Shown piece after piece: positions 548-63,949 of a stretch of 64,000 nt of DNA. This stretch comes from Actinomycetota bacterium. GTDB taxonomy: Bacteria > Actinomycetota > Acidimicrobiia > Acidimicrobiales > Ilumatobacteraceae. A program made the translations under genes and the position numbers. Each line of letters begins with the position of its first letter. The first letter of the stretch is position 1. Location: assembly GCA_039185545.1 (NCBI GenBank), contig JBCDAK010000001.1, positions 3,652 through 67,651 of the forward strand, given 5' to 3'. The notes beneath the pieces are model-generated. The model saw nothing but the letters and a program-made list of their open reading frames with translations, was not told the DNA's origin and did not search any database.

Positions 548-2140
548 TCAGGAGGCGCCGCTGCCCTTGAGCACGACGCCGACGGTGCGGGCGCAGATCT
601 TGACGTCGTGCACCAGCGACCAGTTGTCGACGTAGTACAGATCCATCCGCTTGTAGACCTCGAAGGTGCTGTCGGAGCGACCGGACACCTGCCACATGCC
701 GGTCAGGCCGGGCATGACCCGCAGGCGGTCGAGGGTCTCCTCGTCCCACTCCTCGACCTCGCTGGGGAGCGCGGGGCGGGGGCCGACCATGCTCATCGAT
801 CCGAGGAGCACGTTGTAGAGCTGCGGCAGCTCGTCGATGGAGAACTTGCGGAGGTAGCGGCCGACCTTGGTGATGCGCGGGTCGTGCTTCATCTTGAAGA
901 GCGGCCCGTCCATCTCGTTCTGCTCGCGGAGCTCGGCGAGCTTCTCCTCGGCGTTGACGATCATCGTGCGGAACTTGATGACCTCGAACAGCTCGCCGTC
1001 TTTGCCCACCCGGACCTGCTTGAAGAACACGGGCCCGCGCGACGTGGTCTTGATGAGGAGGGCGGCGATGAGCTGGATGGGCAGCGTGAGCACGAACACG
1101 GTTCCGGCGAGAGCGATGTCGTAGGCCCGCTTCGCGACCGCGCGCCATCCGTGACGGATGGTCGGCTCGACGTAGATCATGGTGCGTCCGTCGAGGCTCT
1201 GCGGACGCAGGCGCGTGACGTCGATGTCGCGGAGCGCCGAGGACAGTGCGACGTGGTAGCCGCCGTCGGTGAGGCGACGCGTCAGCTGGTTGACCTCGTT
1301 GGTGGCGACCGAGGCGAGCGACACCACGACGCCGCCGACACGGTTGGCCTGGAGCACCTGCTCGAGCTCGTCGATCTTGCCGATGACCTCGACTCCGTTG
1401 CGCTCGCCGATGTCGTCGTCGCCGACGAAGCCGACGACCTGATAGCCGAGCGACGGGTTGCGCTGGTAGGCGTGCAGCAGACCGATCGCATGTGGGTCGG
1501 TGCCCACGATGACGATGCGGCGAAGCATGCGGCCCTCTTCGCGGAGGGTGCGGAGGCGAGCTCGGACGTACCGACGCTCGAACAGGATCGCCGCGGTGGC
1601 GCAGACGAAGAGTGCGCCGACGTAGAAACGCGAGAGCGAGTCGTACTGGATGCCGAACGAGAGCAGGACGAGGAACGCCACGCCGGTGAACACGGTCTTG
1701 ATGACGTTGCCCGCCTCGACGATGCGGCGCTCGTTGGCCCTCGCGAGATAGAGATGGTTGATCGCAGCTCCGGCGGCGAACGCCGGGAGGCTGGCGGCGA
1801 CGAGCAGGACGTGGTCGAGGACCACGAAGCTGGGGGCGGGACGGAGCACCGCCTGTGCGGCGAACGCGATCGCGGCACCGACGATGAGCGCGGCGAAGTC
1901 GGCGGCGATCATGGCCCGCTTCACGGCGGTCGGGCGCACACGTTTGCGCGCTCGTCGCTCGATCCCCCCGGGGCCGTAGATCGGCCCGGAGCCGCTCTCC
2001 GCGTCGACGTCGGCGTCGGCCGGTGCGTCGGACGGAGCCGCGGTCGGCTCGATCACGGCGGGGTCGGTCGAGAGTTCGTCGGTGACTGACGGGTCCGCAC
2101 CGCCGTTCACTCCCACACCTGGCCTCGCATTCACGTCCAC
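548..2140 (-). CDS. Priming polyprenyl-phosphate hexose-1-phosphate transferase (WcaJ/CpsE/GumD family sugar transferase)
   Basis: N-terminal TM helices, a central CoA-binding-like region (IVIVGT) and the Bac_transf C-terminus (FFKQVRVGKDG..FKFRTM, DPRITKVGRYLRKFSIDELPQL, SMVGPRP, PGLTGMWQV, DLYYVDNWS). Confidence 0.95.
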   Translation of the reverse strand: MDVNARPGVGVNGGADPSVTDELSTDPAVIEPTAAPSDAPADADVDAESGSGPIYGPGGIERRARKRVRPTAVKRAMIAADFAALIVGAAIAFAAQAVLRPAPSFVVLDHVLLVAASLPAFAAGAAINHLYLARANERRIVEAGNVIKTVFTGVAFLVLLSFGIQYDSLSRFYVGALFVCATAAILFERRYVRARLRTLREEGRMLRRIVIVGTDPHAIGLLHAYQRNPSLGYQVVGFVGDDDIGERNGVEVIGKIDELEQVLQANRVGGVVVSLASVATNEVNQLTRRLTDGGYHVALSSALRDIDVTRLRPQSLDGRTMIYVEPTIRHGWRAVAKRAYDIALAGTVFVLTLPIQLIAALLIKTTSRGPVFFKQVRVGKDGELFEVIKFRTMIVNAEEKLAELREQNEMDGPLFKMKHDPRITKVGRYLRKFSIDELPQLYNVLLGSMSMVGPRPALPSEVEEWDEETLDRLRVMPGLTGMWQVSGRSDSTFEVYKRMDLYYVDNWSLVHDVKICARTVGVVLKGSGAS

Positions 2141-2203
2141 ACTCTTACCATCGGACGGTGCGCGGATGCCTTGAAAAGAACCGGATCGAGCCGATTCTGG
2201 ACG

Positions 2204-2223
2204 GATGACACAAACCTGTCATC
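2204..2223. promoter_or_regulatory. Perfect inverted repeat GATGACA-N6-TGTCATC, candidate operator upstream of the priming GT
   Basis: Read directly. The arms are 7 bp with a 6-nt spacer, in a relatively AT-rich intergenic stretch 64-83 nt upstream of the 2140 start. Confidence 0.45.
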
Positions 2224-2463
2224 TTTCGAACGCTCAGGGTGGTGTCTGTCTGTCGTTCGGTGGGGCGTTTTCACGCAGAGCGTGCGTGTGCCATCGCTCG
2301 TGGCGGTACCACGGACGGTGATGACGGTTTCGCGCGGCCCGTGGCGCCCGGCCCGGACGGGGTCGGTGGCGCCGGGCGACGTTCGGTGAGGCACTCGCTG
2401 ACTGTACGCCCATTCCCGCTCTCCGTGGTGTCAGGGAGGGGTCACGGTCCGGTGAGGAACGCG

Positions 2464-8400: not shown

Positions 8401-8832
8401 GCACCCGGCGAACACGCCGATCGCCCCGTCGAACCGTTCGGGCACGATCGCAGCGCCCTCCAGCGCCTCCCATGCGCACTCGAGGAGGTGGCGATGCTGC
8501 GGGTCCATGATGGCGGCGTCGCGTGAACCGATCCCGAAGAACTCGGGGTCGAACAGGTCGACGCCGTCGAGCACGCCGGCGCGTGTCACGTACTCGCGAT
8601 CGTCGACCACCGCAGCCGGCACCCCGGCCTCGACCAGGAGGTCCGGGTCGAGATCGACCAGGCAGTCGTCGCCCGACACGACGCGCTGCCACAGTCGGTC
8701 GACGTCGGGTGCGCCGGGGAACCGCCCCGACATCCCGACGACGGCGAGGTCGGTCTCGGCCACCGCGTCGGCCCGGGCGGGCGCTTCGAGTCCCGCAGCG
8801 TCGACCTCGTCGCGCCGGCCCGTCGACGTCAC
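2464..8832 (-). CDS. Single-module type I polyketide synthase, KS-AT-KR(with inserted DH)-ACP-TE
   Basis: KS triad TACSTS/HGTGT/IGHLD; AT GHSLG with AAHS; KR GGLGDVG and GQVAYVAAN; DH HRTATGTSLLP and HPALVD; ACP GGHSL; TE GFSGG and PGDH. Confidence 0.95.
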   Translation of the reverse strand: MTSTGRRDEVDAAGLEAPARADAVAETDLAVVGMSGRFPGAPDVDRLWQRVVSGDDCLVDLDPDLLVEAGVPAAVVDDREYVTRAGVLDGVDLFDPEFFGIGSRDAAIMDPQHRHLLECAWEALEGAAIVPERFDGAIGVFAGCGMNTYLVNNLMTTDLVDRIGWFLLRHTGNDKDFLPTFISYKLDLHGPSIGVQTACSTSLVAIHLAAQSLLSFECDLALAGGATIEVPHGVGYTYRDGEILSPDGRCRAYDERSGGTVLTSGAGMLAIRRLTDALQDGDPVLAVIKGTAVNNDGSRKVGFLAPSVDGHADAVQEALAVSGLSARDIELVDGHGTGTAVGDPIEFAALTEAFRASTDETGFCRLTSTKPNIGHLDTAAGVASAIKVVQALRHQVLPPLANHTRPSELLDVDRSPFVLSGDASAWPGDRPRRAGVSSLGVGGTNAHAIFEQAPDEPAGAPGPPEHVLALSAVNPVALDALQSDLADHLEREPALELADVAHTLATGRRVHAHRRVVTVTDTRAAPGQLRDLDRRRSFTSGADEHPSRLVFLFPGGGAQYASMAQGLDTRFEVFHDTLDTIIRSVRDVDGPDLDPLLRGGRPDSDELRRADVSLPAVFATSVALARQWEAWGARPDALLGHSLGEYVVAHLAGVVDLHDATGLVVTRSRLMTEAGAAVEQGVGMLSVGLAEKECLDRLPSGLAIAVVNTTEDCVVAGRHDLIESFAAELEGDGVSAHPLRLDAAAHSPILDPVLDRFHDAVRAVRLTAPATPYPSNLTGDWISSEQATDPQYWVDHLRGTVRFADCLTTIGTGGRWVGVELGPGHALSSAARHHESGPHAAIAALRHPNDSIDDTVHSIGAFGAMWAAGVPSPPTPPLGDGRVRRRLPTYPFQRTRHWIDPGDATVRPVVTGVTTGSAAAPSISRIPDSADWFWEPIWITGAPAGESTARRTESIWIVDGAASTSRLAAAVTDELRRRGMTVVEWPDGDVDALRGADDVVLLLIGRDGPDHDLDAAIDRWSTHAVDRLAELSLAHERVSLAAITIGASDAFGPAMRPADALVAGPVMVAPQEFAGTASTWIDLEPDTVGRVPAIVDELVAETARVALDANSRVVPELVRRRVDDPHTLADVGAGVDGSRFVPGGVYLVTGGLGDVGFVFAHHLAVTHGVRLAVTSSSPLPPDDEWDAWIAQHGSADPTSRRIIRVRDLRAAGADVEVLVADVADPIAVRHAVDRTVERFGSVDGAIHAAGALDDQLIALSDPETRAGVIRPKATAALELAAALDAVGGHLLLLLSSTSTTIGAEGQVAYVAANAVLDASIGRRGRVRVVTLNSGAWAGIGLAADAARVLRLGLVDGDPIDHPVLTARHSLPGDDGAVRIAGRLDARHDWVAGEHRTATGTSLLPATGHLELMLAACAAAGIERPTVSDVLFIDPLVVPDDRIVSVGVTVRPDGDRRWNLEVESDDGLGRGWRTHSQAVASADRHAVDGRDPGAGDSGSADSATRFDLADLTAGFDPMSTQKASLRVGPRWAADQLGRVADEVARARLSLPSHLEGDTDHWHAHPALVDLAVGLGAALRPADLDGLLVPVSLDALRWHRRLPGTVDATARAVERTDRRVVVDITITTVDGEPLVDVDRLVLRRLEPGASLRSGPVPRTSRSRVPRGASRFVALAEGAGLHADDAGDLLERVLYDGAERLIVSTVDLESLRDRAADDADAHGDETPPPAPAGGLTGALQRMWADLLDVAVATDDDFFELGGHSLIAIRMIARINRELGVRVALDELLEAPTIDELATVLRTADPDVDDRVGVDDVHGSGEADDADGAAAGMVSSATAATGARTDAPPRRSPRTLVRLNTTGEGTPFTVVHGAGGNVMFLSPLARLMRKRRPLVGVQAIGIDDRDEPDPTIEAMAERYVEALAAQTDGPHLLGGFSGGGLIALDMGRRLQELGHEVRGVVLFDSVPPGAMSLPRWSSRWNVIRHVATAGPRATMPYLKNRFGGRLLKLLGPQLEHGAEPVPPELRDQLEEGVRDLYDHFTEVALLHRPSVVEFDVAVIKADLMWPYQPEDYHWSEYVAGSLDVVTTPGDHESMFRHPDVTDLWARIGPILDRWDDHPHDEPSDGT

Positions 8833-11800
8833 GAGCCGCCACCGCCGCGCCGCGACAGGGCGCGTCGTCGTCGAGCACCGCGCGCCGAACCGGAGTCGGC
8901 GGTCGGCCGGTCGGCCGAGGACCCGCTCGACGTGTCGGCCGCGCCGTTCGGCCGGGCCGCCGCCGGGACCTCCGCCCCGATCGTGCGGAGATGGGCGCCG
9001 AGCGTCCGGACGGTCGGGTAGCGGAAGACGTCGGTCAGCGCGATCGGTCCGGGAGAGCGCTCTTCGAGCTGGCGGAACACTCGCACCGCGAGGAGGGAGT
9101 GTCCGCCGATCTCGAAGAAGTTGTCGTCGAGGCCGAGTGGTCGGCCCAACGCGGCCGACCAGAGCGATGCCACGAGACCTTCGCTGTCGTCGTCGAACGC
9201 ACGGTCGACGAGGTCGGCCGTCGGCACCGTGGCCTCGCCGTCGACGACGTCGTGAGGAAGGGCGGCGGGAAGGGCGTTGCGGTCGACCTTCCCGTTGGGG
9301 GTCAGTGGCAGGACGTCGATCGGTCGGATGACGTCGGGGATCATGACCGACGGCAGCTCGGCGGCGGCGTGGGCCCGGAGGTCGTCGACCTCGAACCGAC
9401 CCGTCGACACCACGAACGCAGCGAGGATCGGGTCGATCGAGTCGCCACGGGGCACGACGATCGCCTGCACCACATCAGGGTGGCGGTCGAGCACCGACTC
9501 GATCTCTCCGAGCTCGATCCGGTGCCCGCGGATCTTCAGTTGGTTGTCGGACCGGCCGGCGAACTCGACCGTCCCGGCCGAGGTGAGACGGACGATGTCA
9601 CCAGTCGCGTACGTCCGACCGAGTGCGTCGCGATCGACGAAGCGTTCGGCCGTGAGCTCGGGGCGATCGTGGTAGCCGCGGGCGACGCCGAGTCCGCCGA
9701 TGTGCAGTTCCCCGTAGCCGCCGACCGGAAGCGGCCGACCGGCGTCGTCGAGCACGGTCACGGTGGTGTTGGCGATGGGCCGGCCGATCGGGATCGAGCC
9801 GTCGGCGACCGTGTCGATCTCGTGCACCAGCGACCAGATCGTGGTCTCGGTGGGCCCGTACATGTTCGTGAAACGGCCCGAGAGGATCTCGCGGAGCTGT
9901 CGAGCCAACGCGACCGGCAGCGCTTCGCCGCCGAGCAACAGGTGGCCCACGTCGGCGAGCGATCGTCGGTCGGCCGGGTCGGCGAGGAGCATCGCGGCGA
10001 GCGACGGCGTGCACTGGAGATGTGTGACGCCGTGACGTCCGACGAGTTCGGCGACCGTCTCGGCCCGGTCGGGATCGGAGGTTCGGTGAGGCGCGATCGT
10101 CCGCGTGTCGTTCTGATCATCGGCGCCGGAGCGAACCCGCTCGTCGACGAGCCGGCGCGTCTCGGCCAGCCGGTCGAACGACCCGAGCACGAGGTCGGTG
10201 TCGACGCCGAAGTCGATCAGGCAGGCGACCTCGTCGACCCCGACGGCGGCCACCCGGGCGATGACGTCAGCGGCGTCTTCGGGCGTTCCGAACAGTCCGC
10301 TGGTGTCGAGGTAGCGGGAGGCGGCCATGTCGAGCAACTGGTCCATCTCGTCGTCGGTGAGCGACTCGAACGCGGCGTCGTCGGCAGCTCCCGAGCCGGC
10401 GAAGGTGGGAAAGGAGGACGCCATGTTGCGGATGAGTCCGACGGCCGTCCCGAGGTACGCCTTCATCGGATCCCGCGCCGCCTCGACGGCGGAGTCGCGG
10501 TCCGCGTCGAGATACGTGTGGAGCATCAGCGTGACGTGGCCCTCGCCGGGATGTCCCGCCGCCCGCCACGCATGTCGGTATCGCTCGAGGTTGGCCGCGA
10601 GCTCGTCGATGTTCTGCCCGAGCAGGTGCGTCAGCACGTTCAGGCCGAGCGCGCCCGCTCGCTCGAACGTGGCGGGGGTTCCCGCCGACGTGAGCCACAC
10701 GGGCAACTCCTCCTGGACCGGTCGCGGCAACGTCGACGTCGAAACGGGGGAGCCGTCGTGACCGACGAGGTCGACGGCCTCGCCTCGCCACAGGGAGCGG
10801 ACCGTGTCGATGAGGTGCGGGAGATGCTCCCGTGCCCGCCCGTACTCGGACGGGTTGAGAACGAAGTCGTTCGGCTGCCATCCCGGCGCGAACGAGATGC
10901 CCACGCGGCCGCCCGACAGGTTGTCGACCACCGACCACTCCTCGGCGACCCGTACCGGTGAGTGGAGGGGGAGCACCACGCTTCCCGCCCGGATGGCGAC
11001 TCGGGAGGTGGTGGCCGCGACGGCAGCACCGACGACGCTCGGGTTCGGGTACGCCCCGCCGAACTCGTGGAAGTGGCGCTCCGGGGTCCACACCGCTTCG
11101 AATCCGTTCGCGTCGGCGAACCGGGCACCCTCGAGCAGAAGGCGATATCCGTCGACACCGGCCGAGGCGTCTCCGGCGGCGAAGTAGAAGAGGCTCATCG
11201 ACACCGGTCGAGTCGGTACGGGGTCGTGCGATGCCGGTGCGCGGACGGCTCGGGCCGTGGGAGCCGTCGTCACGGATCGGGCGCCGCTGTCCGCCTTGAG
11301 GACGACGTGGAAGCCACGAGCCAGGGTCCACAGGAGCTCGAGGACCGAGATGTCGAAGGACAGACTGGTGACGGCGAGCCACACGCCGGGCGGATCGTGG
11401 TCGATGACCTCGTCCATCGCCGCGAAGAAGTTCACGACGTTTCCGTGCTCGAGCATCACGCCCTTGGGGACACCGGTCGACCCCGAGGTGTAGATGACGT
11501 AGGCGAGGTCGTCGGCGGTGTGGTCGGTGTGGGCGGCGTGCGCGGATCCCGGACCGTCAAGGTCGCCGGCCGTCTCCGTGGTGGCAGTGGGATCGACGTC
11601 GGAGGGATCGACGACGGTGAGCCCCTCGGTGACGAGCGACATCTCGTCGCCGGCCACCAGGATCGTCAGCTCGGAGTCGGCGACCATGTGCTGGAGGCGA
11701 TCGGTCGGATACGCAGGGTCGAGCGGAACATACGCGGCGCCGGTCCGGAGCGTCGCGAGCACCGATGTGACGAGTTCCACGCTGCGGGGCACCGCCAGAC

Positions 11801-14906: not shown

Positions 14907-15024
14907 GCGGCGCGAACACTAGCGATCGGCGGCCGGCGGTCGTGGGAGTTTCGTGCCCGCTCGTGCCAGAAGCGCGTCGTCCCCGCCGCGGACCAGCCGA
15001 TGACCAACCGCGGAACGGTCGGGA

Positions 15025-48792: not shown

Positions 48793-48799
48793 CGACGGC

Positions 48800-54077: not shown

Positions 54078-55036
54078 CAGAAATGACCCTCCTGCTTCTT
54101 CTTCTCCAGCGAGCTGACGCCGTCGTGGTCGGCCACGCGGTTCTGACGTTCGGACGTGGTCGCGAGGAACAGCTCGCGGATGATGTCGGGAAGGCTGGCG
54201 GCGTCGGACTCGATCGCCCCCGTGATCGGATAGCAGCCGAGCGTGCGGAAGCGCACGAGACGCATCTCGGGCTCCTCGCCGGGCTCGAAGCGGAAGCGGT
54301 CGTCGTCGATGACGATCAGCGCGCCGTCGCGTTCGACGACAGGACGCTCCTTCGCGAGATACAGCGACACGAGCGGGATGCTCTCGAGGTGGATGTACTG
54401 CCACAGGTCGAGCTCGGTCCAGTTCGACAGCGGGAACACGCGGATGCTCTCGCCGGGGCTGCGCCGACCGTTGTAGAGCTGCCAGAGTTCGGGCCGCTGA
54501 CGCTTCGGGTCCCACTGGTGCTGCGGCGAGCGGATGGAGAACACCCGCTCCTTCGCCCGCGACTTCTCCTCGTCGCGTCGGGCCCCGCCGAAGCAGAGGT
54601 CGTACTTCTTCTCGTCGAGCAGCTGCTTGAGTCCCTCGGTCTTCCACATGTCGGTGTGCAGCGCCGAGCCATGATCGAACGGGTTGATGTCGCGCTCGAT
54701 GCACTCGGGGTTGTGGTGGACGACGAGGTCCATACCGAGCTTCTCCGCGGTCGCGTCGCGGAACGAGTACATCTCCTGGAACTTCCACATCGTGTCGACG
54801 TGGACCAGCGGGAACGGGGGAGTGCTCGGGAAGAACGCCTTGACGGCGAGATGCAGCATCACCGAGCTGTCCTTGCCGACCGAGTAGAGCATCGCCGGGT
54901 TGTCGGCCTCGGCGGCCGCCTCGCGCATGATCTGGATCGCCTCGGCCTCGAGCCGCTCCAGGTGGGTGAGGCGCTCGGGCGTGATCCGCACGGCCGACGC
55001 GCCCCCCGTCTCAGATTTCTCCGCAATGTCCGTCAT
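54077..55036 (-). CDS. cysD: Sulfate adenylyltransferase subunit 2
   Basis: ATG 55036. [59 protein letters not shown]. Confidence 0.96.
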
Positions 55037-55113
55037 ATCGGTAGACAATACGTACAATCCGCTCCGTGTCCAACTCATCCGAGCACGGAGAGCGTTCCGT
55101 GACGTCCTGGACG

Positions 55114-56118
55114 TCAGGCGTTCAGGACCCGGGTGACCGCGTCGATGACCTGATCGTGGAAAGCACCGCTCGTCGCGACGACGCCGCGATTGGCCGACAG
55201 CCGGGCGCCGTGCGAGAAGTCGAGCGGGCGACCCTCGACGTCGCTGACCGTGCCGCCGGCACGCTCCACCACGAACTTGCCCGCTGCGTGATCCCAGATC
55301 TTCTCGACATAGTCGGCCCGTGTGGGCAGGCGCAGGTAGATCGACGCGTCGCCACGAGCGACGGCTGCGTACTTGCATTGGCTGTCGATCCGGTAGGGAT
55401 CGCTCGTGATCCCGAGCAGGTCGGCGATCTGCTGCGACTGCGAGTGATCGGAGTGGCCCGACTCGACCGACTCGCAGAATCGGGACTCGGCCACCGTGGC
55501 CGGCGACGCCACGCGAATCGGCTGGTCGATCGTCGTGTCCGACGGCAGCCCGTGGGACACGGTGCCGTGTGCATCGGCGGCGAAGATCGCACCGACTCCA
55601 CCATCGGGAGTCGGGAGGTTCGGGCATCCGAGCACCCCGAGGACGACCTGACCCTCGTCGATCAGCGCGAGGGCCACGGCGAATTGGTCGCCGCGCAGGA
55701 AACCTTTCGTGCCGTCGATCGGATCGAGAGTCCAGTACCGGTCGGTCGTTCCGTCCGATGCGCCCACGTCGATCCACCGGACGACGTCGTCGGCGGCGAC
55801 CGACCGACCGAGGCCGGTCGACGTGATGTCCTGCACCGTCGCGAGCAGCTCGGCGTGGTCGGGGTCGGTGAGGTCGGACGAGTCCTCCTCGCCCACGAGC
55901 TCGATGCCGGTCCCCAACGCCTCGACGAGCGTGGCGCACACGACGGCCTGTGCGGCGAAGTCGGCCGCCGTCACCGGGCTGTCGTCGCCCTTGGTGATCG
56001 CGTCGCCGGCCGCCAGGCGGTGTTGCACCGAGACACACGCCGCCGACGCGCGTCGAACCGCCTCGACGGCGACGCCGAGCGTGGACCGGTCGGCGGATGC
56101 GTGGGGGGTGGAGCTCAT
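55114..56118 (-). CDS. 3'(2'),5'-bisphosphate nucleotidase, HAL2/Met22-type (PAP phosphatase)
   Basis: [52 protein letters not shown]. Confidence 0.9.
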
Positions 56119-56144
56119 CGTCGTGCCTCGTCTCGTGAGCGGGG

Positions 56145-56609
56145 TCAACCCGTTCGTTGGCGGGTCTCGCGCTGGTACTGCTCGGCGAGTTCGTCGACGC
56201 TCTCGGGCAGCTCGCCCGATGTCAGGTCGGCCAGCGTGACGGTCTCGAGCACGTTGCGCAGGCTTCCGCGGATCGCCATCCAGACGCGCGGCAACGATTC
56301 GGCGGGCGGGGGATACGACAGGTCACGGAGGCTCTCGTCGTGCACGTCGGCCAACGGGCCGTCGATGGCCCGGAAGACGTCGGCGATCGTGATGGCGTCG
56401 GGCGGTCGTGACAGGGTGAAGCCGCCGTCGGGACCGCGCTTCGACCGCACGAGCTCGGCCCGTTTGAGATCGCGCAGGATGTCGAGGAGGTACTTGAGCG
56501 AGATGTCCTGGCCGGTGGCGATGGCCTCGGCCTTCATGGCCGAGCCGTCGGCCGTCGACAAGGCGGCCGCCGCACGGACGGCGTTGTCGACCCGCTCGCT
56601 GATCCGCAT
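56145..56609 (-). CDS. Rrf2 family transcriptional regulator (no Cys; CymR-like)
   Basis: ATG 56609. IS.KYL.DIL.DL....LV.S.RG..GGF.L.RPP..IT. The protein contains no cysteine. Confidence 0.9.
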
Positions 56610-56681
56610 GCCGGCACGACCATACCGTCGCCGTGCGAACGCCCGAGGAGGATTCGTCCGGCCGGTGGCTCGAGGTGACTC

Positions 56682-58448
56682 GTGAGTCTCGACTCGTGGA
56701 TCGCGCTCGCGGTCCTCGTCGGCGTGGTCGGCGTACTCGTGGCCGACCGGTATCCACCCGCGCTCGTCCTCGGCGCTGCGCTGACGGCGCTCGTCTTCGC
56801 CGACGTCGTCGAGCCGTCCCCCGCGCTCGGCGGATTCTCGTCGACGGCGGTCGCCACCATCGCAGCTCTGTACGTCGTCGCGGGCGCCGCGACCGCCACG
56901 GGACTGTTCGGCGGACTCGTCGACCGAGCGCTCCGTCGCGACGGTTCGGTGCTCGCTCTCTGCGGTGGGACTGCCGCGTTGTCGTCGTTCATCCCGAACA
57001 CGCCGGTCATCGCGATGGCGGCTCCGCAAGTGGTCCGTTGGGCCGATCGGAACTCGGTCAGCGTGTCGCGCTTCCTGATGCCGATGTCGTTCGCGAGCAT
57101 CCTCGGTGGCGTCGTCACGATCATCGGCACCTCGACGAATCTCGTCGTGTCCGACGTGCTGGTGGCGAGCGGAGAGGAGCCGCTGCGCATCTTCGAGATC
57201 TCGCCCCTCGGTGTTCCGGTCGCGATCGCCGGTGTGATCGTGCTGTCGACGGTCGGTCGACGGCTCCTGCCCGAGCGTTCGCCGATCACCACCTCGATCG
57301 AGCGGCGGGCGCGCCAGTTCCAGATCGCGTTCGTGGTCGACGCGGGCGGACCGCTGGTCGGTCGGTCGGTCGAGGACGCGGGGCTCCGCGAGCTCAACGG
57401 CGCCTACCTGTCGTTCATCGAGAGGCGGCGCGGCCCGCAGTCCGCTCCGCGTTCGATCGCGGTCCGACCCGACACGGTGCTCGAATCGGGCGACCTGTGC
57501 TGCTTCGTCGGTGATGCCAGCCGCATCGTCGACCTGCACGACGTCGAGGGGCTCCGCTCGATCGCCGAGGAGCAGATCGGGCTCGCGGCGGGGGCCGACT
57601 CTGGTGTCTTCGAAGCGGTCGTCGCTCCGCTGTCCTCGCTGGTGGGTGAGTCGCTCCGATCGGTCGGCTTCCGCGGGCGTTTCGGCGGGGCCGTCATGGC
57701 GATCCACCGCGAAGGCGAGGACCTCGGGGGTCAGCTCGGGCGCATCCCGCTGCGCGCCGGCGACGTGCTCCTCGTGCTGGCGGACGGCGGGTTCGAGGCG
57801 CGATGGAGAAACGATCGCGACTTCTCGCTCGTGGCCGGGCTCGACCAGCAGGCACCCGTCCGGCGGTCGAAGGCGTTCGTCGTCGGCGCGATCATCGTGG
57901 CCTTCATCGCGGTCGCTGCGACGGGTGCCGTGTCCCTCTTCGAGGCGGCCCTCGCCGCGGCGATCGGCACGATCGCCGTCGGCGCGATCGGAGTGACCGA
58001 AGCTCGCCGCGCGATCGATGTGAACGTCGTCCTCACCATGGCGGTGGCGATCGGTCTCGGCGCAGCGATCTCGGCCAGCGGCCTCGCCGCCGAGGCGGCC
58101 GGCGTCATCGAGCGGATCGACGGACTCGGCGTCCACCTGGTCGTCGCCGTCACGATCGTGTCGACCATCGTCCTCAGCGAGCTGCTCACCAACACCGCCG
58201 CTGCGGCCCTCATGGTTCCGGTCGGTCTCGGGGTGAGCGCCGACCTCGGTCTCGATCCCCGGTTGCTCGCCATCACCGTGCTGTTCGGTGCGTCCTGTTC
58301 GTTCCTGTCGCCCGTCGGCTACCAGACGAACCTGATGGTCGCCGGCCTCGGTGGGTACCGGTTCCGCGACTTCTCGCGGGTCGGCTTCCCGCTCACGCTG
58401 ACGGTGATCGTGATGGTCAGCGCACTCGCACCGCTGATCTACGACTGA
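56682..58448 (+). CDS. SLC13/DASS family permease with two TrkA-C domains (probable sulfate/anion uptake)
   Basis: PNTPV, GG..TIIGTSTNLVV, central RCK-C repeats, NTAAAAL, SP.GYQTNLMV. Confidence 0.88.
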   Translation: MSLDSWIALAVLVGVVGVLVADRYPPALVLGAALTALVFADVVEPSPALGGFSSTAVATIAALYVVAGAATATGLFGGLVDRALRRDGSVLALCGGTAALSSFIPNTPVIAMAAPQVVRWADRNSVSVSRFLMPMSFASILGGVVTIIGTSTNLVVSDVLVASGEEPLRIFEISPLGVPVAIAGVIVLSTVGRRLLPERSPITTSIERRARQFQIAFVVDAGGPLVGRSVEDAGLRELNGAYLSFIERRRGPQSAPRSIAVRPDTVLESGDLCCFVGDASRIVDLHDVEGLRSIAEEQIGLAAGADSGVFEAVVAPLSSLVGESLRSVGFRGRFGGAVMAIHREGEDLGGQLGRIPLRAGDVLLVLADGGFEARWRNDRDFSLVAGLDQQAPVRRSKAFVVGAIIVAFIAVAATGAVSLFEAALAAAIGTIAVGAIGVTEARRAIDVNVVLTMAVAIGLGAAISASGLAAEAAGVIERIDGLGVHLVVAVTIVSTIVLSELLTNTAAAALMVPVGLGVSADLGLDPRLLAITVLFGASCSFLSPVGYQTNLMVAGLGGYRFRDFSRVGFPLTLTVIVMVSALAPLIYD

Positions 58449-58497
58449 CTCGTCTCGTCTGGTCCACGCGTGACTCGAGCGCGCGGCGTCGATGCGG

Positions 58498-59463
58498 TCA
58501 GCAGTCGACCGAGAGTGATGCGGCGATGTTGCGGATGGTCGCGACCTGCTGGTCGTCGAGCCGCTCCTTCCACCGCTCGGCCTGATCGCTGGCGACCCGT
58601 TTCGTCTCGTACCCGGTCGACGGTCGGTTGCGCTCGTCGAGGGTGGCAACGACCTCGTCGGTGAATGGGAGATCGAGTGTCTCGAACATGCGGCGGAAGC
58701 CTCCGACCGGGTCGTTGCACAGATCCTCGTGCTGCACGACGATCCACTCCGGGTGGTGCTCGACGGCGAGATCGAGCGACCGGGTCAGCGCGGCGTAGCT
58801 CCATGCGTGGTGCTCGAGGATCGGCGCATCGTCGGATGGCGGCGCGGATCCTCCGATCGACTCGGCGAACGCTCGCTCCGCTGCGGGACTCCCGCCGATC
58901 CGTTGCCGCTTCCAGCCGAGCTCGAGCCAGCTCGCCACCGCATTGAGCGGATTGCGCCGGATCACGACGACCGGGTCGTCGGTCATCGCCGTCACGAAGT
59001 CGGCGGCGGTCGGCGTGTGCACCGACTTCACGACCTGGATCTCGGCGACACCGGGAGTCTGCGGGCGGGCCGTGAGGGCGAGTCCGCGATGGAGGAGTCG
59101 CACTCGCATCGGCGTCGGGTCGGCCGTCGCCGGCACGAGCATCGCGTTGCGATCGTCGAGCGTCGACAGGCGCAGCAGCCCCTTCGCCACGCGCTCGAGC
59201 GCACGGTCGGCGAGACCGACGGCTCGTCGTGGATCGTCGGGTCCGGCGAGTGCGGCGCTCCACAGTTCCCGGTACCGGGGTGCATCGTCACCGTTCCCGA
59301 GGAGCGGGTACCGACCGAGGCCGGCCTTCGAGAGCAGGGCGAACGGGACGTGCGGATCGCTGTCGGGCTCGTGGATGCGCAGGCCGCCCGGCACGGATGC
59401 CAACACCTCCGACGCCCAGGTCGAGCCGGAACGTGGTGGGCCGAGCACGAGGATCCTGCGCAT
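58498..59463 (-). CDS. PAPS-dependent sulfotransferase
   Basis: ATG 59463. 5'-PSB GPPRSGSTW, 3'-PB RRNPLNAVAS, V.HEDL..DP. Confidence 0.85.
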   Translation of the reverse strand: MRRILVLGPPRSGSTWASEVLASVPGGLRIHEPDSDPHVPFALLSKAGLGRYPLLGNGDDAPRYRELWSAALAGPDDPRRAVGLADRALERVAKGLLRLSTLDDRNAMLVPATADPTPMRVRLLHRGLALTARPQTPGVAEIQVVKSVHTPTAADFVTAMTDDPVVVIRRNPLNAVASWLELGWKRQRIGGSPAAERAFAESIGGSAPPSDDAPILEHHAWSYAALTRSLDLAVEHHPEWIVVQHEDLCNDPVGGFRRMFETLDLPFTDEVVATLDERNRPSTGYETKRVASDQAERWKERLDDQQVATIRNIAASLSVDC

Positions 59464-59650
59464 CGGAGCAGTGTACGGACGCCCGTGCGCCGCACACGGA
59501 GAGCGGCGAACGATCACCGATCGCACGATCAGCCGGGGATCTGCGCCGAATCCAGTCACCCAACGTGTCCGCTGATCGACGTAGAGAGGTTCTTCACGAT
59601 AAAGTCCGCCGTGCGCAACGCAACCGCAACATTCGAAGTACGGTCATCCC

Positions 59651-61564
59651 GTGCGTCTGATCCCCCCGATTGGGTTCGTGCTCAGGTCGGCGACGGCATC
59701 GACCGATGAACCCGACGTGACTTCGTCCTCCGCCGGACGGTCCTGGAAGACCGTCCTCGTCGTCCTGGCTCTTGCCGTCACCGCCGGTGTCCTCGTCGAA
59801 CGAGCCTCCACCTCCGGTGGCTCCAACGACGCCGTCGCCGCGCCAGAGCCCCGTGATGCGTGGCTGCGGCCGTTCACCTCGACCTCGATCTGGAACATGC
59901 CGATCGGGTCGAACGCGCAGTACGCGCCGGCGAACATGCCGTACACGAAGCATCACGCACTCGAGACGTCGTATCTCATGAAGACCGATGCGGGTGACCC
60001 GGTGCGCAATGTGTACAAGGTCGGCCACTGGCGCGACCGCTGCTCCGGCAACGAGAAGCACGACTTCACGCTCCACCTCCCCAACGGATGGCAGCCGAAG
60101 CCGGTGTCGGGCAACGTCACACCCAACAACCCCGGTGTCTTCCTCCAGCCCGACGGACGCACGCTCTACAACATGGGAGCGATGGGCCGCTGCACCGCGA
60201 CCGGTCCGCTCTACGCGAACCGCCCGGGCACCGACAAGTTCATCACCGATCTGTACGGCGACGGACTCGTCGGGGCACACGGTGCGTCGCGGCTGAGCCA
60301 GCTCGGTGGCGCGATCCGGCCGGGCGAGATGACGGGCGACGATCCGATTCGGCACGCGCTCGACCTGCTGGTGTGGTCCGAGCACCTCTACTGGGGTGGT
60401 ACCAAGGAGTCGAGCTATCGGTGGCCGGCCACGAGTTCCGACCGATATGCCGGACCCGATCGCTACCGCGGGAACAACTCCCAGCTGCGGATGGGGTCAC
60501 TGATGGCGCTGCCGCCCAACGTCACACCGGCGAGCCTGGGAATCGACACGGCGGAGGGTCGGAAGATCTTCGCGGCGCTGCAGGACTACGGCGCCTACAT
60601 CACCGACGACTCTGCGTGGGACGCGACGTACATCGGCGTCGACTCGCTCGCCATCGGCACATTCCCGTGGGGTGACGCGCAGCGAGACGACATGGCGCAG
60701 ATGATCCAGGCGCTCCACGTGGTCACGAACAACGCACCCGCCTCGATCGGTGGAGGCGGGACCCCTCGCCAGCCGCTGCTGCCCGAACTCGTGCCCCCAG
60801 GGTCGGCCGGCGCCGGTTCTCCCGGAGGCGGTGGCGGCTCGACGCCGCCGTCGGGCCAGCCCGGCAGCCCCACACCCCCGCCGACCGGCGGAGGTGGTTC
60901 GACTCCCCCGCCCGGCGGAGATCCCCAGCTCGACCTCGAGCGAGCCGATCGCCTCGACAACTCGTTCGTGATCGCCCCGCGGGCCGACGGACAGGTCATC
61001 TGGTCCGACTCGTTCGGCGGCGACGACGCCCGCATCCTCACGCAACGAACCGATCCTCGCTGGGCCACGTTCAACGGAGAGTTCCAGGCGATCGACGGCT
61101 CGGCGCGAGTGATGACGTCCCGAGGCAACACGGTGGCGCTCGCAGGCAGCGGCACGTCCGATGTCACGGTGGCGTCGTCGATCACTCTGTCGTCGGGTCG
61201 GGCCTCACCGGGCCTCGCCGTGCGCACGTCCGACGACGAGAACGGGATCATCGTGTCGATGGTCGTCCGCGATGGTGCGAACCGGATCTCACTGCACTCG
61301 ATCAGCGGGGGTGCGTACACGCTCCTCGCCCAGCAGACCGATGCGGGACTCCGGCTCGGCGCGACCTACGACCTCGAGGTGACCGCCGACGGCAGAGACA
61401 TCGTGGTCCGGCTCGACGGGCAGACCGCTCTCCGCCACCGCCTCGACGAGTCGATCGCCTCGCTGCACGCCGGGGTGACGACTCACGGCCTCCGGGTGAT
61501 GAGCAACGGCACCGCCGATGACGGCGGGTCGAGCTGGAACGACATCGTCATCCGAGCCGCATGA
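59651..61564 (+). CDS. Secreted/anchored hypothetical protein: uncharacterised N-terminal domain, Pro/Gly linker, C-terminal ConA/LamG-like beta-sandwich
   Basis: Hydrophobic segment (VLVVLALAVTAGVLV), RPF..TSIWNMPIG domain, GGGSTPP linker x2, and a beta-rich C-terminus ending WNDIVI. Confidence 0.65.
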   Translation: MRLIPPIGFVLRSATASTDEPDVTSSSAGRSWKTVLVVLALAVTAGVLVERASTSGGSNDAVAAPEPRDAWLRPFTSTSIWNMPIGSNAQYAPANMPYTKHHALETSYLMKTDAGDPVRNVYKVGHWRDRCSGNEKHDFTLHLPNGWQPKPVSGNVTPNNPGVFLQPDGRTLYNMGAMGRCTATGPLYANRPGTDKFITDLYGDGLVGAHGASRLSQLGGAIRPGEMTGDDPIRHALDLLVWSEHLYWGGTKESSYRWPATSSDRYAGPDRYRGNNSQLRMGSLMALPPNVTPASLGIDTAEGRKIFAALQDYGAYITDDSAWDATYIGVDSLAIGTFPWGDAQRDDMAQMIQALHVVTNNAPASIGGGGTPRQPLLPELVPPGSAGAGSPGGGGGSTPPSGQPGSPTPPPTGGGGSTPPPGGDPQLDLERADRLDNSFVIAPRADGQVIWSDSFGGDDARILTQRTDPRWATFNGEFQAIDGSARVMTSRGNTVALAGSGTSDVTVASSITLSSGRASPGLAVRTSDDENGIIVSMVVRDGANRISLHSISGGAYTLLAQQTDAGLRLGATYDLEVTADGRDIVVRLDGQTALRHRLDESIASLHAGVTTHGLRVMSNGTADDGGSSWNDIVIRAA

Positions 61565-61647
61565 TCCGACGCGCGGTCGCGCCGGGCGAGCCGGATCACC
61601 CTGCGTGCCGCGTTCGCGCTGTGCGTCGGGCCCGTTAGGGTTCTCCC

Positions 61648-62920
61648 GTGGAGTTGCGGGAGTCCCTCTCGGGGAAGTGGCGTGCGCTGATCCTCGTTCC
61701 GGCGATCACGGCCGTCATCGCCGGCCTCCTGTTCGCATCCTCGGCCGACGAAGAGTTCCAGGCGACGGCGGTCGTTCGGATCACCGAGTTCGTCGAGACG
61801 GGCTCCGCCGCCGGGCTGCGCGCGGCGATCGACGACCTCGACAGCGCTCTCGGGAGTCGTCGGGTCCTCGAGGTCGTTTTCTCAGATCGCCCCCGAGGCC
61901 GACTCTGCTCGGATCCAGCTGAACGCGGTGGGCGAGAGCGGCGACGTGCGCGTGTCGTTCGGCGCCAACTCCGCCGAGGAAGCCGAAGTGGCGCTCGAGG
62001 CCGGCGTGCGCGAGGCGCTCACCATCGTGTCCGAGACGCAGCGGCGCATCACCGGTCGGGAACTGGTGGCGGCCAATGAACAGGCGAGTGAATCCGCAGC
62101 GTTGCTCCAGGACTTCGAGGCTGCCGCCGGAGCCGCCGACCTCGAGAACGAACTCGCTCGGCGCTCGGCCGACATCCTGGCGTTGCGGAACCAGATCGCA
62201 GCGAACGCAGACGACTTCACCGTTCAGTCGGCGCTCCGCGAGACGCTGGAGACCAAGGAACAGGAGCTCGAAGCGATCTCCGCACAGCTCCTCCCGTGGA
62301 CGAACTCTCGCGCCCGGTTCGAGCTGGCCGTCGCCGCCGGCGCCGACGCATCCCTCGAGCTGCGCAACATCGAGGTCAACGAGGAGGACCTCCAGACGCA
62401 GGAGATCCTCCAGTCGCTGCGGGTGCCCGAGCAATCGGTGCTCCCCGACCTGATCCGCGTGGTGGTCGCCGCCGCGGTCGTCACCGGCGGTGCGGTCGTG
62501 CTCCTCGCTCTTGCCGTCGGGTCCGATCAGCGCCGCCGACGGGATGTCACGGCGCGGTCCCGAGTCGATCGTGACCCGCGAGTCCGCGGTCGGGGATCGC
62601 TGCTCGCGCTGGGCGACGAACGATCCGAGCGCTGGGCCGAGAATGGCGACGACGGTCGCGATGCGGGGTACGACGAGCGGTATGTCGATGAGCGCGACGC
62701 GTCGGGCGCGTGGCGCGAGGACGACCGCAGGGACTCGTGGTACGACCACGGGCAGGATGACGACCGACGCGACGGCGACGACGAGTACGACGACGATGAG
62801 TACGACCGTGATGACGAGTACGACAGCGACGACGAGTACGACGGCGAGTACGACGGCGACGACGAATACGACGACGACGAGTACGAGGACGAGCGGGTGA
62901 CGGGCACGTCCGACCGCTGA
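61648..62920 (+). pseudogene. Second Wzz-like co-polymerase, split by an apparent 1-nt frameshift at TTTT (61877-61880)
   Basis: ORF 61648 gives TM1 and the Wzz N-terminus. Removing one T joins it in frame to ORF 61928 (coiled-coil, TM2, acidic tail). Confidence 0.7.
62771..62893 (+). repeat. Imperfect gac-gag-tac tandem repeat encoding a (D/G)DEY acidic Tyr-rich tail
   Basis: DGDDEYDDDEYDRDDEYDSDDEYDGEYDGDDEYDDDEYEDE, seven EY units. Confidence 0.85.
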
Positions 62921-62947
62921 CCGGCGAACACAGGAGGCAGAGTCAGA

Positions 62948-63949
62948 GTGACGTCCACGATCCGAGAACCGAGCGACGACGCGGCAGCACGCGTCGTCGA
63001 ACGACGACGAGAACCGGTCGGCGAACAACCGGCGTTCCTGGTCGGCGCACCTCGGTCGGGGACCAGCCTCGTGTACAAGGCTCTCTGTCTCCACCCCGAC
63101 GCCTCGTTCGTGTCTCAGTGGGTGCAGCGCTTCCCTCGTCTCCCGGCGCTTGCGATCCTCGACCGCTGCGGTCGGTGGTCGCGTCGGCTCCAGCAACGGG
63201 CGTGGTTCCCGTCGGGGAACGCCTACGCGTACGGTCGAGACCGTTCGCTGGCCGAGCGTCTCTATCCGGCCCCGGCAGAAGGAGAGACCGTCTTCGCGGC
63301 CGCCGGGATCCCGGTCGCGCATGTGCAGGACCGACCCGAGGTCGGCCCCGAGATCCGCCGCCTGCGTCGGTCGTTCCGATCGATCCGGCGCTGGAGCGGC
63401 GGGCGGGTGCTCGTCGTGAAGCGAATCGCCAACAACCGGCGCGTCCCACTGCTGGACGTGGCGTTTCCCGCCGCCCGATACGTCGAGATCGTGCGCGACG
63501 GTCGCGCCGTCGCGCTGTCGATCTCGCGGGTCAACTGGTGGGGACCCCGACCGGTGTGGTGGCTCGGCCAGTCACCGGACGACTGGGCAGCGGCCGGTCG
63601 AGATCCACTCGAGCTGACGGCTCGTCACTGGGTCACCGAACTCGACGTCCTCGAGGCAGGCTCCGCGGAGATCTCACCGAACCGGTACCTGCGAATTCGA
63701 TACGAAGACGTCGTCGAGGATCCCATCCCCACGTTCCGACAGGTCGCCGGATTCTTCGGCCTCGACCCCGACGATCGCGAGTGGCTGCGACGGCTCGACC
63801 TGCTCGAACTCCCCGACAACAACCAGAAGTGGCGCGACGGACTCAGCGATGCCGATGTCGCCACGGTCGAGGCCGTGCAGGCCGATCACCTGCGTCGGCA
63901 CGGCTACGCCATCGGCACCCAGGGCGGCCTGCGCGATGGCCGGGAGTGA
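62948..63949 (+). CDS. PAPS-dependent sulfotransferase
   Basis: FLVGAPRSGTSL, IVRDGRAVALS, RYEDVV.DP, KWR. Confidence 0.88.
   Translation: MTSTIREPSDDAAARVVERRREPVGEQPAFLVGAPRSGTSLVYKALCLHPDASFVSQWVQRFPRLPALAILDRCGRWSRRLQQRAWFPSGNAYAYGRDRSLAERLYPAPAEGETVFAAAGIPVAHVQDRPEVGPEIRRLRRSFRSIRRWSGGRVLVVKRIANNRRVPLLDVAFPAARYVEIVRDGRAVALSISRVNWWGPRPVWWLGQSPDDWAAAGRDPLELTARHWVTELDVLEAGSAEISPNRYLRIRYEDVVEDPIPTFRQVAGFFGLDPDDREWLRRLDLLELPDNNQKWRDGLSDADVATVEAVQADHLRRHGYAIGTQGGLRDGRE

Follow-up and report, generated by a model that had tools for sequence, protein, structure and literature searches.

The 64-kb stretch of contig JBCDAK010000001.1 analysed here (positions 3,652 to 67,651; hereafter the window), from an actinobacterium of the Ilumatobacteraceae, carries a coupled pair of thiotemplate enzymes, a nonribosomal peptide synthetase with a formyltransferase domain (NRPS1) and a single-module polyketide synthase (PKS), in the midst of genes for a Wzx/Wzy-dependent polysaccharide. 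Gene neighbourhoods in relatives strongly support an association of this pair, termed arm 1, with glycan assembly, as opposed to a role as an antibiotic cluster. On balance, we favour a composite surface-polysaccharide super-locus of a marine Ilumatobacter-like bacterium, in which an Eps-type core with arm 1 as an integral part would be joined by a lineage-specific second thiotemplate arm (arm 2) and by the sulfation block of a second glycan module. Arm 1 with glycosyltransferases (GTs) is already known as a conserved cluster whose product is uncharacterised; what is new, as judged from synteny, is its systematic association with the full Wzx/Wzy machinery across phyla. Also new are its occurrence in Acidimicrobiia and its position beside an orphan glycyl-NRPS arm and a module of sulfotransferases with supply of 3'-phosphoadenosine 5'-phosphosulfate (PAPS).

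Arm 1 and its glycan neighbourhood

The two genes of arm 1 are translationally coupled, the NRPS1 stop and the PKS overlapping by 4 nt, and run in the same direction as a GT4 gene and the gene of the priming GT. Protein searches with NRPS1 return hundreds of proteins of identical architecture (~1500-1600 aa), and matches to the family occur in at least 597 stretches when one genome per GTDB species is taken. A look-up of the exact NRPS1 sequence matched no recorded contig. Identity to NRPS1 is 49-56% in Ilumatobacter-like metagenome-assembled genomes (MAGs) and ~40% in Rhodobacteraceae, Rhizobiales, Burkholderiales, Gemmatimonadota, Acidobacteriota and Myxococcota; PKS orthologues are 35-54% identical to the window PKS. 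On Pfam-labelled Ilumatobacter contigs, the NRPS and PKS genes lie beside WecG, two priming transferases, GT4, GT2, Wzy_C, DegT, UDP-glucose dehydrogenase, hexapeptide transferases and a phosphopantetheinyl transferase (PPTase). A Rhodobacter chromosome has WecG, Wzy_C, PKS, GT2, NRPS and PPTase in one tightly coupled run, and on an acidobacterial contig the NRPS adjoins dTDP-sugar genes and a Poly_export protein.

To put numbers on this association, 87 loci were screened by phmmer with the Pfam-labelled neighbours as seeds, and counts were made on loci of at least 20 kb with flanks of +/-10 kb. Loci in which the match includes the formylation (F) domain (n=55, from at least five phyla) were separated from those in which only the adenylation domain with its inserted monooxygenase and the thiolation domain, A(MOx)-T, are homologous (n=9); the latter are ordinary multimodular assembly lines from Myxococcus, Tolypothrix and similar organisms and serve as control. 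GT2, WecG, Wzy_C, priming GT and Wzz or tyrosine-kinase genes were counted as glycan genes. At least one such family accompanies the pair in 50/55 F-domain loci and in 2/9 control loci (Fisher p ~4e-5), at least two in 46 versus 1, and at least three in 33 versus 1. A neighbouring PKS is found in 50 of the F-domain loci and 6 of the controls, GT2 in 40 and 1; PPTase (38), WecG (21) and Wzy_C (20) do not occur in the control group at all.

The closest relatives permit a comparison gene by gene. For thirteen genes of the window, all located between 548 and 37822, orthologues (30-68% identity) lie no further than 10 kb from the cassette in the Ilumatobacter-like loci L001, L002, L085 and L086: the priming polyprenyl-phosphate hexose-1-phosphate transferase (PHPT), PKS, NRPS1, GT4a, the first acetyltransferase, GT2a, WecG, Wzz, the tyrosine kinase, Wzy, GT4b, a 648-aa protein of no known family and GT2b. 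Gene order is shuffled between these loci and the window. The recurrence of thirteen genes near the cassette indicates that the region 548-41311 is conserved as a single system which includes arm 1; GT2a and the WecG-family GT are, by the same comparison, conserved partners of the cassette. A preliminary description of this DNA had stressed the physical interleaving of thiotemplate and glycan genes, which for arm 1 proves to go beyond chance.

WecG/TagA-, GT2- and Wzy_C-type enzymes act on polyprenyl-diphosphate-linked glycans. With partners of this kind and no exporter or regulator, a lipid-linked glycan is a likelier destination of the arm 1 product than a free metabolite. It seems quite improbable that arm 1, alone or together with arm 2, belongs to the ordinary secondary-metabolite clusters, with GTs as tailoring enzymes of a released glycosylated peptide-polyketide: the partners WecG/TagA, Wzy_C, PHPT and the polysaccharide co-polymerase (PCP) with its bacterial tyrosine (BY) kinase work on lipid-diphosphate-linked glycans and are not GT1-type tailoring enzymes, and the thirteen genes are co-conserved with the cassette. 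As the preliminary description had stated, neither a regulator nor a resistance gene nor a drug exporter was detected among the window genes, ten of which, however, have no family assignment. The arguments for a released metabolite are that the PKS has its own thioesterase (TE), that the Roseobacter homologue is treated as an NRPS-type I PKS (NRPS-T1PKS) biosynthetic gene cluster (BGC) in the literature (PMC5014874, PMC10584327), and that five cassette loci have no visible glycan genes. In L017, L044, L069 and L081 (also in L035 and L047), moreover, the F-A(MOx)-T and PKS pair leads straight into further NRPS modules and does not end in a TE; the cassette can thus be the front end of longer assembly lines.

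Two further gene families were noted near the cassette. An FkbH-like protein with an acyl carrier protein (ACP), as used for glyceryl-ACP loading, adjoins it in an Ilumatobacter MAG (L001, 817-2723) and also in L072 and L081; glycan loci of this kind contain, with it, a further unit built on a carrier protein. A GMC-family FAD oxidoreductase, absent from the window, lies beside the cassette in 11/55 loci (L002, L016, L025, L028, L036, L046, L053, L060, L061, L086 and others).

Enzymes of arm 1 and their proposed chemistry

The A domain of NRPS1 is split by a luciferase-like FMN monooxygenase: in Pfam searches, residues 570-787 match AMP-binding and 819-1139 Bac_luciferase, followed by the remainder of the A domain. 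The monooxygenase part matches that of PuwE (PDB 6ket) at 1.5e-105. Related enzymes, the MtaG/MelG, PuwE and BtrO monooxygenases, introduce a hydroxyl group at the alpha-carbon of acyl or aminoacyl groups bound to a carrier. The A-domain code, DILQLGMIWK with Stachelhaus positions set by GrsA numbering, is of the glycine type, and the Asn-His-Asp triad of the F domain (N99/H101/D137) is invariant in an alignment of 22 sequences. The N-formyl and glycyl chemistry guessed earlier therefore fits the predicted domains, the A domain of arm 2 having a Gly-type code as well.

The PKS shows intact motifs throughout: Cys-His-His in the ketosynthase (KS), GHSLG in the acyltransferase (AT), a B-type ketoreductase (KR) with LDD, Y and N, His and Asp in the dehydratase (DH), the ACP serine, and GxSxG plus His in the TE. 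All catalytic residues of these six domains are kept in 52 orthologues. Its domain order is KS-AT-(~310 aa linker or pseudo-KR)-KR-DH-ACP-TE, the position of the DH after the KR being unusual for modular cis-AT PKSs. Structures 8xju, 8xjy and 8xjz, probably colibactin ClbH/ClbI, are the top PDB matches of both the PKS and NRPS1; they were considered as specific relatives and set aside, since they come from a different hybrid system that happens to supply the best-matching KS-AT and NRPS chains.

The genes present, the integrity of their domains, their conservation and their synteny are observed; the substrates, the order of steps and the acceptor in the following scheme are deduced from these. 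NRPS1 may load glycine onto its own carrier, where the F domain would N-formylate it and/or the FMN monooxygenase would hydroxylate its alpha-carbon. The PKS could then carry out one malonyl-type extension, reduction by its B-type KR and dehydration, yielding a C4 (formamido)enoyl thioester. The TE may off-load this C4 unit onto the lipid-linked glycan made by GT2, WecG and Wzy_C, or release it as an acceptor for that glycan. The product of arm 1 would thus be a glycan substituent or an aglycone and not a free antibiotic.

Two alternatives concern individual steps of this scheme. In the first, an amino sugar is the formyl acceptor of the N-terminal NRPS1 domain, as it is for ArnA, and A(MOx)-T and the PKS make an un-formylated unit. 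The F domain alone (residues 1-330) is much closer to ArnA formyltransferase (3.5e-11) and GDP-perosamine N-formyltransferase (5e-10) than to the F domain of LgrA (4e-4), the context is a glycan locus, and DegT aminotransferases occur in several related loci. We nevertheless consider it unlikely: the F domain is fused directly upstream of A-T as in LgrA, the whole protein has LgrA as its best match (4e-174, in four stretches), and amino-sugar genes are missing from the window. NRPS F domains probably descend from enzymes that formylate sugars, so that the similarity of the F domain does not discriminate.

In the second, the PKS acts iteratively on a formyl-glycine primer to give a long unsaturated or hydroxylated lipid, an aglycone or anchor on which GT2 and WecG would build a glycan that Wzy_C ligates or polymerises into a glycolipid or lipoglycan. 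A KS-AT-KR-DH array with the KR before the DH and no enoylreductase recalls iterative polyene- or polyunsaturated-fatty-acid-type synthases; the co-conserved GT2 has faint Glyco_transf_21 (lipid-GT-like) matches in relatives, the minimal Rhodobacter cluster has two GTs and Wzy_C only, and a dedicated capsule-locus PKS has a precedent in WcbR/RkpA (PMC3908369). Its probability seems small, as the sequence bears no sign of iteration, KS and AT resemble those of modular cis-AT PKSs, and the normal PHPT and undecaprenyl-type pathway of the window make a special lipid needless.

Several points weigh against a formyl-glycine-derived C4 unit destined for a glycan, which remains our preferred scheme for arm 1. 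The glycine code depends on the placement of the Stachelhaus positions by GrsA numbering; the F domain is nearer to sugar formyltransferases than to that of LgrA, and its substrate could be an amino sugar; the AT motif is atypical (AAAH in the window and IAAH in the family consensus, instead of HAFH or YASH), leaving the extender unit uncertain; and the PKS could act iteratively. A PPTase homologue was sought in the 64-kb window and none was found. Of the 55 cassette loci, five (L006, L011, L033, L054, L069) have no glycan gene within 10 kb; about half of the 55 are Rhodobacteraceae, the counts hence not being phylogenetically independent, and the flanks were visible only to +/-10 kb and annotated with seed-based phmmer. 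No RNA run matched in a run search with the window sequence, and the Roseobacter cluster has been without an assigned product since 2007 (PMC4337385, PMC10584327).

The glycan core

PHPT, Wzx, Wzy, a PCP with BY-kinase and several GTs in a single locus make the core of the window a Wzx/Wzy-dependent pathway. The full set claimed in the preliminary description was recovered, with seven GTs (one of them weak) beside the priming GT and a CpsD-like kinase; of its two Wzz-like proteins one was confirmed, the other candidate (61928-62920) having a central transmembrane (TM) segment and no family match. On the minus strand, the PLP decarboxylase/ATP-grasp pair, GT4a, NRPS1/PKS and PHPT follow one another with gaps of at most 323 nt. 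Overlaps of 4 nt join the PLP decarboxylase to the ATP-grasp gene and GT2b to the GT4-GFO fusion. The decarboxylase of this pair was confirmed, and matches LysA (3e-37) better than BtrK (5e-21); its proposed ATP-grasp partner has weak matches only. The pair accompanies the cassette in just three other loci (L008, L060 and L077).

PHPT, the GT2s, the WecG-type GT, the GT4s, the SAT-like acetyltransferase, Wzx and Wzy find their best NCBIfam models in the exopolysaccharide (EPS) system of Myxococcus xanthus, namely EpsZ, EpsU, EpsA, EpsD, EpsE, EpsC, Wzx_EPS and Wzy_EPS (pathway: PMC7484181). All scores lie below the equivalog cutoffs (EpsD is closest with 339 versus 370 bits; EpsU reaches 226 versus 700), so that the window system is related, and not equivalent, to Eps of M. 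xanthus. The eps gene list of M. xanthus contains no NRPS or PKS (PMC7484181). The window has no outer membrane polysaccharide export (OPX) protein. Absence of OPX is expected for a Gram-positive organism.

Around wzx, the longest open reading frames (ORFs) of the 648-aa protein, 26668-28614(-), and of wzx, 28313-30166(+), overlap by ~150-300 nt, which means that one or both true start codons are internal. Further downstream lie three paralogous repeat proteins: the 697-aa paralogue shares its repeated N-terminal region with the 624-aa protein, and its C-terminal domain is 44% identical to the 391-aa protein. A homologue of the three (36-40%) is present in the sulfated-glycan locus L101 at 13781-16432.

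Arm 2

The second arm, consisting of a stand-alone ACP, a FabF-type KS and NRPS2, follows GT2b, the GT4-GFO fusion and the second GFO gene co-directionally, with gaps of -4, 19, 270, 15 and 1 nt, and the run ends at the convergent gene 48800-49762. The A domain of NRPS2 has a Gly-like code, DPLQLGLVWK, which matches the glycine code at 8/10 positions when these are set by GrsA numbering. Its first condensation (C) domain is divergent (best PDB match 3e-22); the second is of a typical elongation type (1.5e-51). A homologue search with NRPS2 returned only generic NRPSs of at most 36% identity and no close orthologue. Arm 2 is plausibly a lineage-specific addition to a conserved GT2/GT4/oxidoreductase operon, with its link to the glycan drawn solely from its 3' position in that operon. 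It would probably supply a second N-acyl-glycyl group, an assignment made by inference only. The earlier proposal that the thiotemplate enzymes serve the glycan and not an antibiotic is well supported for arm 1, which has an adjacent PKS and glycan genes in 50/55 loci each, and is suggested for arm 2 by operon position only.

Beyond arm 2, a plus-strand ORF at 48461-49753 was dismissed as a gene, because codon-position GC places the real gene on the minus strand at 48800-49762. A WD40 match like that of the neighbouring beta-propeller protein was also seen in L066, near an A(MOx) NRPS.

The sulfation block and the question of one or several products

The right-hand part of the window (52110-63949) holds a full PAPS-dependent set: CysD and CysN, APS kinase, a phosphatase for 3'-phosphoadenosine 5'-phosphate (PAP), and the sulfotransferases ST1 and ST2. 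The PAPS supply and two sulfotransferases of the preliminary description were thus found again, and orthologues of the latter sit in glycan loci of relatives. A role of cysDNC mainly in assimilation was rejected, because the APS kinase is fused to it, a PAP phosphatase gene adjoins it, and a transporter and two sulfotransferases are encoded nearby. PAPS supply of this kind compares with NodPQ or the mycobacterial CysDNC. The DASS/SLC13-type symporter between the PAPS genes and ST1 is a candidate for a dedicated sulfate importer.

Homologues of ST1 with 57-58% identity lie on the metagenome contigs L100 and L101, which keep the arrangement ST1/637-aa protein/330-aa protein/ST2 at 55-71% identity. 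In L100, the block runs directly into a Wzx-type flippase, Wzy_C, a Phosphodiest-family protein, a hexapeptide transferase and GT2; in L101, it has near it an orthologue of CysQ (66%) and a PHPT that shares 52% identity with that of the window. There is no PKS or NRPS within 10 kb of the block in either. A metagenome scan with ST2 yielded one near-identical contig of 1.1 kb and otherwise distant matches (23-34%), none of which provided gene context. AlphaFold, run on the single sequence, modelled the 637-aa protein with a pLDDT of 35.

ST1 and ST2 very probably act on glycans and draw on a PAPS supply dedicated to them; that the locus includes glycan sulfation is supported by gene content and synteny. 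CysDNC, PAP phosphatase, anion transporter, two sulfotransferases and two conserved membrane proteins would form a dedicated module. Since the block continues in relatives into a Wzx/Wzy set of its own without PKS or NRPS, it is probably part of a separately conserved second Wzx/Wzy module that continues beyond base 64000; the source contig, of 91 kb, extends past the window end.

This bears on the earlier proposal that all parts of the locus make one sulfated, peptidyl/acyl-decorated product, which found no support: the sulfotransferase block has its own Wzx/Wzy and no PKS/NRPS in relatives, and the flanks of cassette-bearing relatives contain no sulfation genes. At the other extreme, the window may be a mosaic of independent neighbours, each with a product of its own: an Eps glycan with its cassette, an orphan NRPS of the lipo-glycyl type and a module for a sulfated glycan. 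Both observations just named would be explained in this way, as would the lack of an NRPS2 orthologue and the fact that the strand changes several times among at least 10 transcription units. We are inclined to doubt full independence, given that arm 2 is co-directional with, and 270 nt downstream of, conserved glycan genes, that L101 has a window-like PHPT and CysQ next to the sulfotransferase block, and that a single Wzx and a single Wzy are visible in 64 kb.

A bolder version can be put forward tentatively: the cluster known from Roseobacter would be a pan-bacterial machine (at least five phyla) that installs a formyl-glycine-derived C4 unit on a Wzx/Wzy polysaccharide, or primes it, combined here with a second glycyl-NRPS arm and PAPS sulfation on the same polymer system. 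If true, surface glycans modified by thiotemplate enzymes would be a class of their own that had so far gone unrecognised. The NRPS-PKS pair is among the most widely distributed orphan hybrid clusters and has been listed with the secondary-metabolite clusters for nearly 20 years; its tight glycan association across phyla moves the search for the product from culture extracts to polysaccharide, lipopolysaccharide and cell-wall fractions. The question becomes testable in cultured roseobacters, rhizobia and Ilumatobacter, and counts of marine "novel NRPS-T1PKS BGCs" would in part be counts of glycan-modification genes.

Gene inventory

The window has a GC content of 70%, at which raw ORF lists consist mostly of shadow ORFs; genes were therefore called by codon-position GC and the called proteins annotated by Pfam and NCBIfam profile searches. 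The 37 genes called and annotated in this way (main features in Table 1) include nearly every item listed in the preliminary description, at the place given there, among them the PKS, two NRPSs, ACP and KS, PLP decarboxylase, two hexapeptide acyltransferases, cysD/cysNC, PAP phosphatase and two sulfotransferases. Additional to that list are two GFO/IDH/MocA oxidoreductases, the DASS/SLC13-type transporter, the WD40 protein and the minus-strand gene at 48800-49762. The ten genes without a family, among which the 648-aa protein, the three repeat proteins, the secreted protein at 48800-49762, the 637-aa and 330-aa proteins and the N-terminal part of the WD40 protein are named, mostly encode proteins with a single N-terminal TM segment, which are probably extracytoplasmic.

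The 64 kb contain no Sfp-type PPTase, DegT aminotransferase, UDP-glucose dehydrogenase or NDP-sugar epimerase/dehydratase, all common neighbours of the cassette in relatives. An Rfam scan of the window gave no RNA genes, and sigma-70 promoter and intrinsic-terminator scans of 36-52.5 kb were empty, a result that is uninformative at 70% GC. The nearest relatives of most window genes are in Ilumatobacter or Acidimicrobiales MAGs, and the window sequence is present in marine metagenome DNA runs. At the left edge, 3-494 (+), lies the 3' part of an HpcH/HpaI aldolase/citrate-lyase-like gene, outside the locus.

Table 1. Features called in the window, with strand and supporting matches
Position	Strand	Feature	Support
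548-2140	-	Priming PHPT (EpsZ/WbaP-like), CoA_binding_3 + Bac_transf, 5 TM	Bac_transf 6.6e-65; TIGR03025 402 bits, above cutoff; 63% orthologue beside cassette in L001
2464-8832	-	Arm 1 PKS, KS-AT-KR-DH-ACP-TE, single module, 2122 aa	Pfam, motifs, 52 orthologues
8829-13649	-	Arm 1 NRPS1, F-A(MOx)-peptidyl carrier protein, 1606 aa	Pfam
13770-14906	-	GT4a (EpsE-like)	Pfam, NCBIfam; 120 nt upstream of NRPS1
15025-16269	-	Putative ATP-grasp ligase	Weak: NCBIfam 3.9e-7; Pfam 0.008-0.047; PDB LysX/RimK 0.014
16266-17816	-	PLP-dependent Orn/DAP/Arg-family decarboxylase	lysA-like 7e-58 (below cutoff); dCO2ase_PEP1 (TIGR03099) 5e-30
17869-18411	+	Hexapeptide O-acetyltransferase, LacA/Maa/WcaF-like	68% orthologue beside cassette in L085
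18572-19114	+	Hexapeptide acyltransferase, EpsC/CysE-like	EpsC 122 bits, cutoff 150
19111-20382	+	GT2a with C-terminal TM pair (EpsU-like)	Orthologues 44-53% in L002, L086
20417-21496	+	WecG/TagA/CpsF-family GT (EpsA-like)	Present in 21/55 cassette loci
21639-22691	+	Wzz/PCP chain-length determinant	Pfam 3e-5; TIGR03007 1.4e-19; two flanking TM segments
22691-23758	+	BY-kinase, CpsD-like tyrosine autokinase	TIGR01007 2e-18
23933-25561	+	Wzy polymerase (Wzy_C; Wzy_EPS-like), 10 TM	Orthologues 41-43% in L002, L086
25596-26675	-	GT4b	Pfam; 58% orthologue in L086
26668-28563	-	Secreted or membrane-anchored protein, 648 aa, possibly glycanase	Weak GH30C + ArfA matches; 48% orthologue in L086
28418-30166	+	Wzx flippase, MOP family, 12 TM	Pfam, NCBIfam
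30142-31245	+	Weak GT1/GT4-like protein	Pfam, NCBIfam
31371-33245	+	Signal-anchored repeat protein, one of three paralogues	No family matches
33273-34448	-	Signal-anchored repeat protein, one of three paralogues	No family matches
34567-36660	-	Signal-anchored repeat protein, one of three paralogues	No family matches
36824-37822	+	GT2b (EpsD-like), first gene of operon ending with arm 2	50% orthologue next to cassette in L085
37819-40173	+	GT4 + GFO/IDH/MocA fusion	Pfam, NCBIfam
40193-41311	+	Second GFO/IDH/MocA sugar oxidoreductase	Pfam, NCBIfam
41582-41812	+	Stand-alone ACP (arm 2)	Pfam
41828-43027	+	FabF-type KS, Cys-His-His active site (arm 2)	Pfam, motifs
43029-48773	+	NRPS2, C(HHLVVD)-A-T-C(HHIIAD)-T-TE, 1914 aa (arm 2)	Pfam, motifs
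48800-49762	-	Secreted protein, ~300-320 aa, N-terminal signal/TM, no family match	Codon-phase GC
49860-51983	+	WD40 beta-propeller protein, membrane-anchored (N-terminal TM), 707 aa	Pfam
52110-54077	-	CysNC, GTPase + APS-kinase domain	Pfam, NCBIfam
54077-55036	-	CysD	Pfam, NCBIfam
55114-56148	-	HAL2-type PAP phosphatase	~326-327 bits, cutoff 267
56682-58448	+	DASS/SLC13-type anion symporter, two internal TrkA_C domains	Pfam, NCBIfam
58498-59463	-	Sulfotransferase ST1	Pfam
59651-61564	+	637-aa protein, no family	Conserved in L100, L101
61928-62920	+	330-aa protein, no family, central TM	Conserved in L100, L101
62948-63949	+	Sulfotransferase ST2	Pfam

Relation to known systems

The closest known system is a conserved NRPS/PKS/GT/PPTase cluster of the Roseobacter group, reportedly described by Martens et al. 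in 2007. It is present in 28/57 genomes, with an uncharacterised product (PMC4337385; PMC5014874), and was in 2023 classed as an NRPS-like/T1PKS hybrid with <8% similarity to MIBiG entries; its NRPS and PKS genes, of 4527 and 6333 nt, are similar in size to the window pair (PMC10584327). The statement of the preliminary description that no such combined system is known has to be qualified accordingly, arm 1 with GTs being this long-known cluster (PMC4337385, PMC5014874, PMC10584327). Both have the same NRPS (~1500 aa, F-A(MOx)-T) and PKS (~2100 aa, KS-AT-KR-DH-ACP-TE), with 35-41% identity to the window, together with GT2 and WecG. The window differs in that no PPTase is adjacent, the PKS follows the NRPS without a GT2 between them, and the pair lies within a complete Wzx/Wzy pathway of 40 kb to which further arms are added.

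Formylating initiation modules are familiar from NRPS systems: LgrA begins with an F-A-peptidyl carrier protein module, and formyl-glycine starters occur in the oxazole polyketides oxazolomycin and conglobatin. NRPS1 shares with them the fusion of an F domain, including its N-H-D triad, to A-T, a Gly-type code and the hand-over to a KS; in contrast to them, its A domain is interrupted by a monooxygenase, there is no cyclodehydratase, and its F domain is nearer to sugar formyltransferases. A luciferase-like monooxygenase (LLM) domain inside a Gly-type A domain is likewise found in MtaG/MelG and PuwE (6ket). MtaG and MelG are terminal C-A(MOx)-T-TE modules that form a terminal amide, whereas NRPS1 is a loading module with an F domain and without C or TE, which feeds a KS and is thus not a module of the terminal-amide kind.

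To our knowledge, the PKSs WcbR/RkpA have no F-A(MOx)-T NRPS as a partner. They resemble arm 1, in a comparison made by their description, as a single type I PKS in a polysaccharide locus (PMC3908369). The ATP-grasp/PLP decarboxylase pair, LLM monooxygenase, free ACP and C-T module lacking an A domain of the window recall butirosin BtrI/J/K/O and the exosortase-associated sets (TIGR03099) in EPS loci, which comprise an AMP-ligase, an ACP and a PLP decarboxylase; for the window decarboxylase, however, LysA is a closer match than BtrK, its partner is weakly assigned to the ATP-grasp family, and only three other cassette loci have the pair.

For the sulfation block, a sulfated Wzx/Wzy polysaccharide has been characterised in cyanobacteria with synechan (PMC8205485), and one has recently been proposed, without chemical proof, for an actinomycete (PMC13390465). 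The synechan xss genes and wps-1 of Actinoplanes missouriensis combine Wzx/Wzy genes with two sulfotransferases (PMC8205485, PMC13390465), as does the window, where sulfation is predicted. The window adds a dedicated CysDNC, PAP phosphatase and anion transporter to this picture, the block's own Wzx/Wzy being seen in relatives only. A dedicated PAPS supply and a conserved two-sulfotransferase block in glycan loci thus add evidence for sulfated actinobacterial polysaccharides, an idea put forward only recently in PMC13390465.

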